A DNA stretch of 64,000 nt from Eledone cirrhosa (lineage: Eukaryota), in the NCBI GenBank assembly GCA_964016885.1, contig OZ024747.1, forward strand, positions 33,976,001 to 34,040,000, read 5' to 3'. A program made the translations under genes and the position numbers. This document shows positions 498-63,374 of this stretch, piece after piece (positions within the stretch are counted from its first letter, which is position 1; the number at the start of each line of letters is the position of its first letter). A model generated the notes under the pieces. It made no database searches. It saw only the letters and a list, made by a program, of their open reading frames with translations, and was not told the DNA's origin.

Positions 498-787
498 GAT
501 ATATATATATATATATATATATATATAAACGGAAAAAAATGAAACGAAATTTCATTTTCCACTCTTAGTACGGCTGTTACTTAAATATAAGTATGTATAC
601 TTACATACATTTAGGTATACAGACGTACAGTATTATATATATATACATACATGCACACATATATATGTACGTATGGATTCACCGAACATTTATTATAATG
701 CTCGGTGTGTTTGTAAACAAACATCCCGTATTAAGCCGTAGTGTCTAGCAACCATCGTTGCTCGTTTTTTTAACACTGACAAAGGAA

Positions 788-828
788 CGCGGTACTAGTT
801 TCAAGCTTATTAGCTCTCGTCAGCAACG
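788..828 (-). ncRNA. Minimal type I hammerhead ribozyme (family A)
   Basis: Reverse complement: cgttg CTGACGA GAGCT-aata-AGCTT GAAA CTAG TA ccgcg; palindromic stem III ACTAGT. Confidence 0.8.
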
Positions 829-1266
829 TATACCTTCCTGCCAGATGATTGTACTTCTGAAAGTATATACTTTACTTATGCATATTAACGGCTGAGCAGC
901 CTAATTTGCATATCGAGTGGGTTAATCGGCCGGGTGCACCGAAAACGATAAATGAAAAAGAATGAAATGAAATGAAATTTCTCACTCTTAGTATGGCTGA
1001 TACTTAAAAATGAATATGTATACGTACATACATATATGTATACAGACGTACAGTATAATGTATATATGTACATACATGCACACATATATATATATATATA
1101 TGTACGTATGGGTTTTCCGTACATTTCGTTTCATTTTTTCCGTTTACCGTTATCGGTGCGCCCGGCCGACTATCTCACTCGATATGCAAATCAGGCTGCT
1201 CAACCGTTAATATGCATAAGTAAAGTATATACTTTTAAACATTAAATCTTATGGCAGGAAGGTATA

Positions 1267-1300
1267 CGGTGCTGACGATAAGCTTGAAACTAGTTCATCG
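1267..1300 (+). ncRNA. Minimal hammerhead ribozyme with collapsed stem II (family A)
   Basis: cggtg CTGACGA taagctt GAAA CTAG TT catcg; stem I CGGTG/CATCG. Confidence 0.65.
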
Positions 1301-1577
1301 TTCGTTTGTCAGTGTTGAACAAAAGGGCAACGATGGTTGCTAAACAATGTACGGCTTCATTCGGGCTGTTTGTTTACAAACAAACCGAATATTATAATAA
1401 ATGTTCGGTAAACCGATACGTACATATATATACGTGTGCATGTATGTATATATCTACATACTACTGTACGTCTGTATACATATATGTATGTACGTATACA
1501 TACTTATATTTAGTTTTATGTATATATATTATATATATATATATATGCAAGTTGAAGGAAGACGTAGTAGAAGAAGA

Positions 1578-1962
1578 TCATCATTATTTTACGTCTGCTT
1601 TGTCCTGTTTGCAAGGGTGGGACGGGAACTGATTCTGGCTTTATTTCTACAGCTGGATTCCCTTCCTAACACCAAGCCGCCAACCTCATTTACAGTGAGT
1701 GCTGGGTGCTTTTTTCCCTGTGGCGCCTACACATCCACTTTACAGTGTGAGCTAGGTGCTCTTTATTTTGCCGTGGCACCTCCACCACCACTTTGCCGTG
1801 GACTGATAGGGACCCCAGTCCTATCATCTCAATTCTACAGCTGAGTAAATTGGACCAATTTGAAATAAAGTATCTTGCTCAAGGAAACAACACATCACCT
1901 GGTCCGAGAATTGAACTCACAACCTTTCGATTTCAAGGCCAATGCTCTATCCACTAAGCCAT
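1578..1962 (-). mobile_element. tRNA-headed CORE-like SINE with RTE-type tail
   Basis: Minus strand: A box tggcttagtgg, B box gagttcaattc, CORE-like ccttgagcaagatacttta, tail gacgtaaaataatgatga. Confidence 0.75.
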
Positions 1963-2254
1963 ATATATATATAATGTAATGAATCTTTCTTGAAATCTGA
2001 CCTCTCTTCATGCCCAGTTTTTCCTCATATTCTATACTAAATTATTCTGCAAACTCTTGGAACCTTTTACCATACTCAAATATTTAACATTGGGATAATT
2101 ATCTTACGTAACTCTACCAATCACCTTGAGTACAACTATCTGGTAAGCTGTTAATTTCACCTTTTGTTTGCATATTCAATCCACACAAATATGGATTAAC
2201 CAACATAAAGTGAAACATCTTTAACTTCTCGTATTATATATATATATATATATA

Positions 2255-2668
2255 TATTATTCAAAATATTAACAAATGAAAAATATTCACATAATCAAAA
2301 TATATACTTTATTATATATATTTCAAAGGTACTGTGTTGTTTTTTTCAGTACATCCTCATCAGACAAAATATATGATTTGATATATGACATACCGCTACG
2401 GTCTTGATTATTCAAATCCCGTACTGGCAGTCAAGACCATAGCGGTATGTCATATATCAAATCGTATATTTTGTCTGATGAGGACGTACTGAATAAACAA
2501 CACAGTACCTTTGAAATATATATAATAAAGTATATATTTTGATTATGAAAATATTTTTCATTTGTTAATATTTTGAATAATATTAAAAACTCCAGGAAAA
2601 CCTAACTGTCTAGTGTAAAATTGTATTCATTGAGTAATCAACGAACCATACTAATCTTTTGTCATATA
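2255..2668 (+). mobile_element. Family E fold-back insertion (PLE pLTR-like): ~150-bp inverted arms plus ~85-bp unpaired tail
   Basis: 2255-2407 is the reverse complement of 2431-2582; flanked by (TA)n on both sides. Confidence 0.75.
2470..2525 (+). ncRNA. Hammerhead-like core
   Basis: CTGATGA ggacGTACTG-loop-CAGTACcttt GAAA tatata; stem I/III register imperfect. Confidence 0.45.
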
Positions 2669-3448
2669 AATATATATATATATATTTGTGTAAGTCTGCA
2701 CTAACATGAATGGTATCAACTTAATGCACCGAAACTATAATGATTTCCAGAGTCTGTTCATTTTTCCATTGGTTTTTCCATTGTCGTGTGCCCCTCTATT
2801 TTCAATTCCAGTTCTAAACATAATCTGATAATAATATTCACCAGAATTAGCCCTAATATGACTTCATGGTCCTGTGGATAAAAATGATGAATATTTTACC
2901 CCAGTGAATGGCAAGTGAGATCTAATGAATTATAATGCTATTTGGGATATAATTTGGATATGGCAATAAATCCCAAGTGAGTTGCTGATGTGAACACAAG
3001 AGAGCTCAAAATTGTATATAATAATATTCACTGCACCATTCATAATTCTCTCTTACTTTTGGATCTCAATTAATCGCCCCTCCCCCTCTGCATTTTTCAG
3101 TGCCTCCTCACCTATTAAATTTTGTTCATCTATCCTCAGTGACATTTTATTTTAAGTGGTAGCATTCCTGTGATAATTAATTTTCTTTAGACATTAACAA
3201 ATATTGTGCCTAACATAAAAGAACTTTACAAGAAATCTCATACGTTATAAAATTAGCAGGATGGTTTGGGGTCTCAATATGTAAACTAAACAACTAATTG
3301 GTTTTTTAAAATGAAGGTAGACAACCTAGTACAATTATCATCCCCACCCCACTTATTCTAACTTCCCCCTAATATTTGGGACCCGAGAGTAAGTGTCTCA
3401 ATTGGAAAACTATTAGATATAAAAATGTCATATTAATTTCTAATTCCG

Positions 3449-61520: not shown

Positions 61521-61825
61521 TCAGTTGACTAAGCACATACACCTGTCTGTCCCATACAGACACATATACAGATAGATCGATACATTTACACACAAACACG
61601 CGTGTGTGGTGTGTATATATGTATATATATATATATATATATATATATATATATATATATATATATTTATTAAAATATATATAGAGCCCTCTTTGGATTT
61701 TAGTCTTCAAATTTATTATTATTACTCTATATATATATATATAATTATATATAGTAGTACAACACTGGAAGGTAATATCCGTAGTGGTAGAGCCCTCAGT
61801 CCATGGGACGAGTTAGGTGGAAGTG

Positions 61826-61956
61826 GTTACACAATAGTTAGTTCACCATACCGAGAACAGTTGTTTCACCTTAGCGGATGCTCAGCTAATTACGAGCTGA
61901 GGATCCGCTAAGGTGAAACAACTGTTCTCGGTATGGTGAACTAACTATCGTGTAAC
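61826..61956. repeat. Fold-back (~60-bp arms) around a hammerhead
   Basis: agttagttcaccataccgagaacagttgtttcaccttagcggat mirrored; degenerate single arm at ~58795-58850. Confidence 0.8.
61893..61930 (+). ncRNA. Minimal type I hammerhead ribozyme
   Basis: CGAG CTGAGGA tCC-gctaa-GGt GAAA CAACTG TT CTCG. Confidence 0.7.
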
Positions 61957-62034
61957 GACTTCTATATATATATACATATATGTATATATGAAAAATGTGA
62001 AAATATTGCGTGCTGCGTGGTTGTAAATGGGTTA

Positions 62035-62582
62035 CATATGAATAAATTTAGTCCTTCGTCAGTGACCTTCCAGCCTTCATTGGTATTTCATCGCTTTAAA
62101 GACCATATACCTCTTGTTGGTGCGAGCAACGGCTAAAGAAAGTCGTTGGGACACGTAAATAGGGGGAACGAGCGAGACAGTAAACAAACAAAATGGTAAT
62201 GCAACGAAAAGTGGGGAAGAAAGAGTCAAGTACCTGAAATCGATGAACATAAGTTCTGTGAAATCGTAGACGAGAGAGAATAAAGACCATCCGAACTGGT
62301 CGAAGTGTGAGTGAGGAAAGAATCGGATGGTCTTTACTCTCTCTCGTCTACGATTTCACAGAACTTATGTTCATTGATTTCAGGGACTTGACTCTTTCTT
62401 CCCCATTTTTAGTTGCATTACCATCTCTGTTTGTTTACTGCCTCACTCGTTCCCCCTATTTACGTGTCCCAACGACTTTCTTTAGCCGTTGCTCGCACCA
62501 ACCAGAGGTATATGGTCTTTAAAGCGATGAAAAACCAATGAAGGCTAGAAGATCACTGACGAAGGACTAAATTTATTCATAT
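62035..62582. repeat. Long fold-back (~258-bp arms, ~30-bp spacer) with unpaired tail at ~61990-62034
   Basis: 62035-62292 is the reverse complement of 62323-62582; (TA)n flanks. Confidence 0.9.
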
Positions 62583-62589
62583 ATATATA

Positions 62590-63127
62590 TTATCATAATC
62601 ATCAGGTCTAGCTTGCTCGGCTTTCTACGACACTTTTCCTCCATCCATCTATGTCTCTCATAGCGTTTGCCAGTTCTTCTGCAGTGCACCCGGTATCGAC
62701 CTCAGGTTGCTTGACCTATGTCTTGGGACGACCACCGTTTCTTGCTCCATGAGATGGACTTCATAACAACACATCACATGCTATGTCTTCCTTGCTGCGC
62801 CAACAGTGGCCAGCAAATCTGAATCTCTGTCAACGTATTGATCTGCTGATAGGTGGTATATTGCCATAGAGATCCTTATTTGTTGGGTGTTAACATCAGA
62901 CTGGGAAAAGCCTGGGAAGCATTGAATGCAATGGAAAAGATATGGAAATCAAACCTGCCGACTTAAACTGAAAAGGAATTTCTTCAGAGCTGCTGTGGAA
63001 TCTGTACTTGTTTATGGCTCTAACACTTGGACGCTAACGTCGAAACTGGAGAAAAATGTAGACGGGGCATACACACGTATGGTCCGCGCTGCTTTAAACG
63101 TGTCTTGGAGGGAACACCCAACAAATA
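62590..63127 (-). mobile_element. RTE LINE with inverted 5' segment (62892-63127 on plus)
   Basis: Plus: RLGKAWEAL..FFRAAVESVLVYGSNTW..WREHPTN; minus continues HPTNKDLYG..RFRFAGHCWR..GGRPKT; (gat) tail. Confidence 0.85.
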
Positions 63128-63180
63128 TATATATATATATATATATATATATATATATATATATATATATATATATATAT

Positions 63181-63374
63181 ATAGGAACGAGTAGGACCCC
63201 GACGGCTGAGCTCAAGCCGTTTCGACGGCTAATTCTGGTCCAGAATTAGCCGTCGAAACGGCTTGAGCTCAGCCGTTGGGGTCCTACTCGTTCCTATTAC
63301 CCACTCTACTACCCTAAGTATTGAGTACTTTGGTGCGTTATGGTCCATCTGGTTCCTTACCACATTTCCTTCGT
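63181..63374 (+). mobile_element. Family M fold-back mini-element, copy 3
   Basis: 58-bp arms with a 1-nt loop, same tail. Confidence 0.8.

Follow-up and report, generated by a model that had tools for sequence, protein, structure and literature searches.

Introduction

Metazoan non-LTR (non-long terminal repeat) retrozymes have been defined and their RNA circles shown, with a Penelope reverse transcriptase (RT) proposed as the mobilizing enzyme (PMC7229834), and animal retrozymes have been argued to derive from Penelope elements as non-autonomous forms (Li, Clavereau, Pollet 2026, bioRxiv 10.64898/2026.07.22.740005). Parts of such a system are described elsewhere: the tail of Penelope insertions is a published structure (PMC8557442) that was traced to two internal RT start sites (PMC11167929), and circular templates were already proposed for complementary DNA (cDNA) of more than unit length (PMC4209133). 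Comparable repeats have been described in schistosomes (PMC8490949), and the squid account reports Rfam hammerheads merely as counts (PMC6962438). Here we analyse four repeat families, A, B, C and D, that carry hammerhead-ribozyme motifs, lack open reading frames (ORFs), and occur within a 64-kb stretch of the 3.0-Gb genome of Eledone cirrhosa (G000:C7:33976001-34040000; hereafter the window).

Families A-D belong to the published class of Penelope-mobilized retrozymes and so do not constitute a new system. The novelty lies in a quantified insertion footprint, long tails, a pile-up of 5' ends in family B, and a G3:C8 core in the hammerhead of family D. Two questions are concerned. Which enzyme moves animal retrozymes was earlier argued from co-occurrence and from homology to the pseudo-long terminal repeats (pLTRs) of Penelope elements; four unrelated families with the exact Penelope insertion footprint, now counted, address the same question. 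The second is whether a Penelope-type hammerhead cuts in vivo, for which family B gives a possible trace at the DNA level.

Results

The window is rich in repeats and contains numerous TA tracts. Self-BLAST recovered A-D at the places given in a preliminary description of this DNA, and the genome search per family proposed there found each of them repeated genome-wide, with at least 1244-2442 first-look candidates per family. The four families are, as that description held, mutually unrelated (the sole match is 19 nt between B and C) and ORF-less: on both strands of the repeated consensus the longest ATG-initiated ORF is 24-64 aa, and the repeat period is that of the unit, with no RT/GIY-YIG ORF between repeats. 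One unit length required correction. The within-locus period of D is ~538 bp rather than 486, the shorter value having been read because the copy in the window carries internal deletions, one of which took out part of the hammerhead. Units of A measure 419-438 bp (consensus 430), those of B 524 bp and those of C 645-669 bp, with a within-locus period of ~657. In 60 evenly spaced 10-kb stretches of the genome, 6 A, 2 B, 2 C and 0 D loci were found, which suggests about 30,000 loci of A (11,000-65,000), about 10,000 each of B and C (1,200-36,000), and under 18,000 of D. Young ORF-less subfamilies are present, at 96-99% identity.

Most copies of A-D, which consist of one arm or of two inverted arms, are 0.3-1.5 units long. 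Arms longer than one unit made up 169 of 392, a figure inflated by the initial queries; arms longer than two units numbered 8 of 136 in A, 3 of 101 in B, 2 of 82 in C and 0 of 73 in D, so that tandems of a dimer or more occur in A-C and only partial tandems in D. The longest in-register arms reached 4.37, 2.89, 2.5 and 1.65 units (the last being the maximum for D), and two whole hammerheads are present in just 6-16% of the arms of A, B and C. Copies had been described as exceeding one unit or being permuted; tandems do exist, but both C copies in the window (0.98 and 0.84 unit) and an old B copy (0.81) fall short of one unit. Arms cross the ribozyme cut site and continue for up to 4.37 units, and are therefore not simple scraps of pLTRs; these ORF-less multimers contradict, at the level of DNA, the alternative raised in the preliminary description, that the monomers are pLTRs and nothing else.

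All retrieved loci were mapped on the circular consensus of their family, numbered from the predicted cut in A-C and from an arbitrary point in D; duplicates, low-complexity matches, arms shorter than 40 nt and those truncated by the edge of a locus were left out of the arm set. Of the 383 arms, 331 ended <=6 nt from one of two fixed 3' positions per family, where chance predicts 4-6%. These sites are at unit positions 219 and 275 in A, 60 and 178 in B, 280 and 391 in C, and 436 and 539 in D; the two sites of a family are separated by 56-118 nt, and every one of them terminates in TAT/TA-type sequence. TA-like DNA adjoins 298 of the 331 site-ended arms, and the sites lie mostly against (TA)n. 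The claim that insertions always lie between TA-rich tracts thus stands for most 3' ends and fails for some of the 5' ends, which are variable in position throughout A-D.

The fold-back insertions obey a second rule. Arm pairs were joined 5'-to-5' in 121 cases and 3'-to-3' in 2. After setting aside 32 of the 121 inverted pairs in which an arm was off-site, 84 of the 89 scorable pairs had a different site on each arm (p=7e-20). Copies from different loci are less alike than the paired arms of a single insertion. Paired arms share a 5' end (within 10 nt) in just 10 of the 121 pairs, and a simple snap-back origin is therefore ruled out, since paired arms end at different places. The preliminary description overlooked the rule of two fixed ends.

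The same footprint is found in Penelope-type elements. Genome searches with two relics from the window retrieved numerous copies, in some of which frames of 713 and 784 aa are open. The 784-aa frame comprises RVT_1 together with, at its C terminus, a GIY-YIG domain by Pfam; the 713-aa frame has no Pfam match, and we take it to be Penelope-type from RT and endonuclease motifs together with its pLTR structure. In each of the two ORF-bearing families there are likewise two 3' ends next to (TA)n, at a distance of 88 nt in one and 41 nt in the other. An inverted-end footprint common to retrozymes and Penelope elements, as first suggested for the window, is thereby upheld as a two-end pattern of A-D and both ORF-bearing families, which makes trans-mobilization by a Penelope RT/GIY-YIG enzyme likely. 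No non-repetitive sequence is common to A-D and the two intact autonomous families compared, termini included, and 13 nt shared by C and one of the autonomous 3' ends were dismissed as not significant (E 0.22). Arms found by 3'-end queries, or by chance in flanks and random stretches, run into their own unit and not into an ORF.

By motif and covariation, each unit of A-D has one type I hammerhead, with a canonical core in A-C and a swapped 3-8 pair in D. The palindromic stem III reported for A, B and C (ACTAGT, ACTAATTAGT and ACCATGGT, respectively) is present in all three, and compensatory changes distinguish their subfamilies, in stem I of A, in stem II of B (three versions) and at the 10.1-11.1 pair of C. 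For D no hammerhead had been noted, but it carries one too, in which stem I has 8 bp, stem II is short and stem III is a 9-bp hairpin; GAAA is present, and the cut triplet is AUA. The 3-8 pair of the D core is Watson-Crick in 39 of 41 copies (23 G-C, 14 U-A, 2 C-G; 2 otherwise), and across 29 full-length copies this structure shows 95% pairing; two-sided changes occur both in stem I and at the 3-8 pair. The idea that the D core had decayed was dropped once the 3-8 pairing was recognized. Natural hammerheads with a U3:A8 core are described (PMC3088659; PMC4209133), and G3:C8 is described as an engineered double mutant with partial rescue (PMC11167929); a natural G3:C8 core was not found in the literature searched, though the supplements of the cited papers may list one.

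A strict scan found 8 type I hammerhead motifs in the window; with degenerate and 3-8-swapped copies the total is 13, which agrees with the dozen or so hammerhead or hammerhead-like cores first estimated for these 64 kb. The same scan of 400 kb of evenly spaced genome stretches found 19 motifs, where ten shuffles of this DNA gave 2 altogether, and a second scan found 37 C3:G8 motifs in 600 kb, compared with 1 in five shuffles. Extrapolated genome-wide, the second count amounts to roughly 130,000-255,000 motifs. The density in the window is only ~2x that of the sampled genome, and the locus is not special. No hammerhead appeared among the best 150 of 257 matches in an Rfam scan of the window, the top matches being microRNA models on TA hairpins, below cut-off. 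A genome search with RF00163 gave 18 matches elsewhere and none in the window; the ten loci inspected represent another family.

The 5' ends of arms unselected for length were compared with the counts expected for nt 1-25 after the predicted cut. In B, 17 of 44 fell within these 25 nt (2.6 expected) and 2 in the next, more AT-rich bin; among all B arms, 7 begin within nt 1-5, and the 5 nt preceding the cut hold no 5' end. This pile is a possible trace of hammerhead cleavage in vivo. Neighbouring tandem units agreed in subfamily variants in 133 of 173 informative comparisons.

Within the window, one A insertion pairs an arm of 1.40 units at 525..1126 (-), whose fixed 3' end (site 275) lies at 525 against (TA)n, with an inverted arm of 0.93 unit at 1123..1512 (+), ending at 1512 (site 219). 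The first contains a type I hammerhead at 786..832 (-; core at 823, stem III ACTAGT) and the second one with a shortened stem II at 1263..1302 (+; core at 1272); the arms differ at subfamily-diagnostic positions. A back-to-back A insertion at 15095..15597 combines 15095-15319 (-), reaching site 275, with 15308-15597 (+), reaching site 219, and has an intact hammerhead at 15337-15384 (+). In D, an arm of 0.91 unit at 10840..11335 (-), with its fixed 3' end (outer site) at 10840, carries the G3:C8 hammerhead at 11097..11198 (-; core at 11189, 8-bp stem I, long hairpin stem III), and the inverted arm of 1.29 units at 11334..11975 (+) ends at 11975 (inner site) and includes a hammerhead with an internal deletion at 11753-11822. 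The old B copy (72% identity, 0.81 unit) at 6632..7071 (-) has a hammerhead at 6679-6766 in which stem II is compensatory (GCAATG/CATTGC) and GAAA is changed to GGAA. A B arm of 1.35 units at 56958..57666 (-), with a 3' end (site 178) at 56958 and a hammerhead at 57129-57215, begins 7 nt upstream of the second cut site. The C arms are at 48185..48816 (-; 0.98 unit, 3' end at 48185, site 280), with a hammerhead at 48450-48551 that has a single core change (CTGGTGA), and at 56407..56949 (+; 0.84 unit, 3' end at site 391), with a hammerhead at 56484-56570.

About seven Penelope-type relics had been reported from the window and seven were found, five by tblastn with intact genomic ORFs and two, GIY-YIG-like, read by eye from the translation. 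One, at 44316..46753 (-), has a protein 94-97% identical to intact 713-aa ORFs elsewhere in the genome and ends at its two fixed sites, 44316 and an inverted arm at 46669-46753. Its family (also L239-L268) is young, has no CUGANGA hammerhead that we could find in the pLTR, and has many short arms with 5' ends clustered 70-107 nt into the pLTR reference. The others are an RT/endonuclease relic at 28478..30675 (-; 39-52% to the 713-aa family), an RT with C-terminal GIY-YIG at 30872..32459 (+; CX4CXXC linker), an RT/GIY-YIG relic at 59789..61495 (+), a short RT fragment at 23686..23940 (+), and the GIY-YIG-like fragments at 26651..27839 (-), between inverted ends, and at 49150..49500 (+; approximate limits). 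Beside the former of these two lies a U3:A8 hammerhead at 26742-26792 (-); others occur in the sampled genome (L148, L406). Pfam searches with 21 window fragments gave one weak PHD match only, and a PDB sequence search gave none.

Further repeats were noted. A fifth hammerhead family forms a fold-back at 2263-2580, with cores at 2363 (-) and 2475 (+) and stem III ATATATAT; similar motifs are frequent in the random genome sample. Another fold-back hammerhead family is represented at 61780-61962, 58795-58848 and 59315-59487, with a core at 61897 and a near-palindromic stem III, and a long inverted repeat at 62000-62600, between TA tracts, has the word CTGACGA near each outer end. Octamer words (ATGCAAAT or its reverse) stand upstream of the hammerhead in A (position 312) and D (position 146). 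Newt satellite 2 reportedly has a promoter of the small nuclear RNA type.

Family E, 138 nt long and without a hammerhead, provides a linear-template comparison for A-D. Its 5' end is fixed, as are its two 3' ends (57 and 138), and it occurs mostly as a fold-back of ~200 bp (including L171-L200). In the window it forms a short fold-back at 51461..51615, another at 57675..57888, and a third at 63184..63378, in which arms of 57 and 138 nt meet at the fixed 5' end. Of 34 scorable pairs, 33 had one site per arm. Of 118 arms, 103 begin in the first 13 nt, and none extends beyond the fixed 5' end, past which the sequence is unrelated between copies. With 17 loci in 600 kb, about 80,000 are expected genome-wide. 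E is likely a Penelope-mobilized RNA resembling a short interspersed nuclear element (SINE). In several loci (L201, L203, L205, L206, L207) a head-to-tail junction links the 5' end of E to A and to other hammerhead families, at their cut site or close to it, and the remainder of the host element does not follow downstream; this arrangement was imposed by the search pattern. Such junctions could reflect an RT jump onto a self-cleaved RNA end. A single parent hammerhead upstream of E was rejected: its 8 matches came from different families and under the same forced geometry, and it serves as a lead only.

Other repeats in the window are a degenerate CT-rich tandem array at 51906-54404 (period about 80/157 bp), a ~190-bp SINE-like repeat in four copies of 83-93% identity (3450-3640, 9048-9256, 40410-40613, 63497-63689), and a GC-rich broken non-LTR retrotransposon at 16766-19300, with what we take to be RT-like and restriction-like endonuclease motifs. 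Relics of long interspersed nuclear elements with short tandem 3' tails (4489-8853, 22400-23150, 62600-63120, 115-498) are presumably RTE-like by their motifs, and fragments at 38862-41686, with no Pfam match, presumably resemble hAT-type transposases.

Discussion

We lean, by a little, toward reading A-D as ORF-less non-LTR retrozymes with active ribozymes and some circular template, copied in trans by a Penelope-type RT/GIY-YIG enzyme. Trans-mobilization of ORF-less units by Penelope machinery, taken alone, appears very probable from the footprint. In favour of circles are the multimers in exact register, the agreement of neighbouring tandem units in most comparisons, and the lack of any E arm that passes the fixed 5' end of that family. 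The preliminary description had proposed several self-cleaving circular or multimeric RNAs copied in trans by Penelope RTs; the trans-copied ORF-less multimers stand, with a footprint equal to that of autonomous elements, while circularity and self-cleavage are predictions.

The events may be reconstructed in this order. A copy of more than one unit would be transcribed. Its hammerheads are predicted to cut, as dimers in A-C because stem III is palindromic and as monomers in D because stem III has 9 bp, and the monomers would be ligated into circles. To judge from the flanks, the endonuclease would nick both strands of a (TA)n tract; such nicking of a (TA)n-type target is reported in vitro for an anole element (PMC11167929). 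Each nick would then prime cDNA at one of two internal RNA sites, where the ends are observed and UA micro-pairing may serve as the contact. Extension 5'-ward for a variable length, over the unit boundary, would yield the permuted and tandem copies seen as DNA structure. Where both nicks are used, the two cDNAs would be joined 5'-to-5' into the observed fold-back with one site per arm, perhaps through twin priming by an RT dimer.

Several results weigh against active ribozymes and a circular template. For D, the covarying changes reflect lineage events that number two or three rather than 29. Stem II of D is short, and in the window copy the predicted minimum-energy fold, which is not the active form, sequesters G12-A14. 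Circular folds of A-D are more stable than shuffles (z -9.0, -2.6, -2.9 and -6.2), but this stability derives partly from TA hairpins and holds on the antisense of A, B and D as well. No pile of 5' ends is found at the cut in A (0 vs 4.1 expected) or C (2 vs 2.0), and A ends pile up at nt 76-100 instead. The initiator-like word TTAGTT overlaps the B cut, and the B pile could mark a transcription start. A similar 5' pile is seen in the 713-aa ORF-bearing family, in which no canonical hammerhead was found. Discordance between neighbouring tandem units (40 of 173 comparisons), some of it at linked sites (L034, L353), together with the arms at 525-1512 that stem from different subfamilies, means that a single circle copied repeatedly does not explain all insertions. 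Past the first unit, termination per kb becomes about two to three times as frequent, as would suit finite linear templates and equally strand displacement on a circle; arm lengths did not follow the memoryless law that an endless circle should produce. No sequence links A-D to a particular autonomous partner among the two families compared. As reported elsewhere, hammerhead mutants had no effect on insertion in vitro (PMC11167929), and 8 of 9 frog dimers tested did not cleave (bioRxiv 10.64898/2026.07.22.740005).

In the strongest rival, the same Penelope trans-mobilization acts on linear read-through transcripts of tandem copies, with RT template jumps, and hammerheads are minor or passengers. 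We regard this as a real possibility, if the less probable one. The rising termination past one unit, the mosaic tandem units and mixed-subfamily arms, and the absence of a pile at the cut in A and C all suit it, as do the head-to-tail junctions of E on the RNAs of other families, by which jumps may occur, and the report that uncleaved RNA is the main template in vitro (PMC11167929). Linear templates would, however, shorten every generation, because most copies are 0.3-1.5 units, and arms of 3-4 units are nonetheless in exact register; hammerhead stems and the 3-8 core pair still compensate between subfamilies, and B ends begin sharply at the cut. On this evidence, some circular template seems favoured over linear templates only.

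Two other explanations dispense with retrozymes altogether. The units might be pLTR fragments of 5'-truncated autonomous Penelope insertions with no independent life, which would account for the identical footprint and for the relation of frog retrozymes to pLTRs (bioRxiv 10.64898/2026.07.22.740005), and our comparison covered only two of the many autonomous families in the genome. Against it, the period is 430-660 bp and not that of a 3-4 kb element, arms from 3'-end queries or random stretches continue into their own unit with no ORF, no non-repetitive match links them to the termini of the two intact families, and ORF-less subfamilies are young (96-99%); the ORF-less multimers largely refute this explanation, and we consider it very improbable. 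Still less probable is that the units are satellite, MITE-like (miniature inverted-repeat transposable element) or Helitron-like DNA, spread by DNA rolling circle or unequal crossing-over with fold-backs as repair errors: tandem and inverted copies within microsatellites are common for DNA repeats, but the strict polarity (3' end fixed, 5' end variable), the 121 pairs joined 5'-to-5' against 2 joined 3'-to-3' with a common 5' end in 10 of 121, the RNA-structure covariation, and the same kind of ends as in RT-encoding elements all speak against it.

Returning to the retrozyme reading, its fullest form is one we advance tentatively and with more doubt than belief: a community of circular ribozyme RNAs, with tens of thousands of copies over A-D and hammerheads on the order of 10^5, would parasitize Penelope RT; an RT dimer would prime both nicks at two fixed RNA sites; the 5' ends of B would be traces of cleavage in vivo; and D would be a selected, active, monomer-competent G3:C8 hammerhead. 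The one-site-per-arm rule provides a concrete model for the 'tail plus inversion' structure of Penelope elements. A-D are substrates of 0.4-0.7 kb with mapped start sites, suited to an in vitro RT assay, and D illustrates that hammerhead censuses fixed on C3:G8 overlook whole families.

Compared with the metazoan non-LTR retrozymes described in PMC7229834, A-D are likewise ORF-less, low-GC units with one type I hammerhead, found as monomers to multimers beside Penelope-like elements. They differ in unit length (430-660 nt here, ~170-400 nt there) and in being mostly dispersed 0.3-1.5-mers with fold-backs instead of long arrays; circles and cleavage were demonstrated there, whereas A-D are known here from DNA alone, and that account, as far as it was available to us, does not mention two fixed ends. 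Li, Clavereau and Pollet make the same overall claim, and their unit sizes (51-972 bp) include A-D. The link drawn in their account is co-occurrence and pLTR homology over 35 genomes, most of them from vertebrates; in our comparison with two families, pLTR homology did not appear and the insertion footprint is common instead (bioRxiv 10.64898/2026.07.22.740005). Their pipeline for CUGANGA-type tandems would likely miss D and most sub-dimer copies. The A-D families, statistics of their footprint and a two-site rule in retrozymes were not found in the literature searched, although Dfam or Repbase may name the families as unknown repeats.

With Penelope-like elements as described in PMC8557442 and PMC11167929, A-D share partial tandems, an inverted 5'-truncated copy, a one-end tail, (TA)n targets and two internal RT starts; they differ in having no ORF, in tails of 56-118 nt rather than 30-40, and in start sites whose terminal TA-type sequence matches the target, the anole sites being described as non-homologous to theirs (PMC11167929). 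The non-autonomous Chlamys elements, for example MRC1, are also ORF-less, Penelope-mobilized and inserted as multicopy head-to-tail arrays, but by the same account their 3' ends are like those of their autonomous partners, and canonical hammerheads are absent from most Chlamys elements (PMC8557442). Minimal and variant Penelope hammerheads (PMC4209133, PMC3088659) offer the closest likeness for the ribozymes, in the palindromic stem III for dimer activity, the extra nucleotide after A9 and the natural U3:A8 pair; D is set apart from those described by G3:C8 as its commonest sampled core and by a self-sufficient 9-bp stem III.

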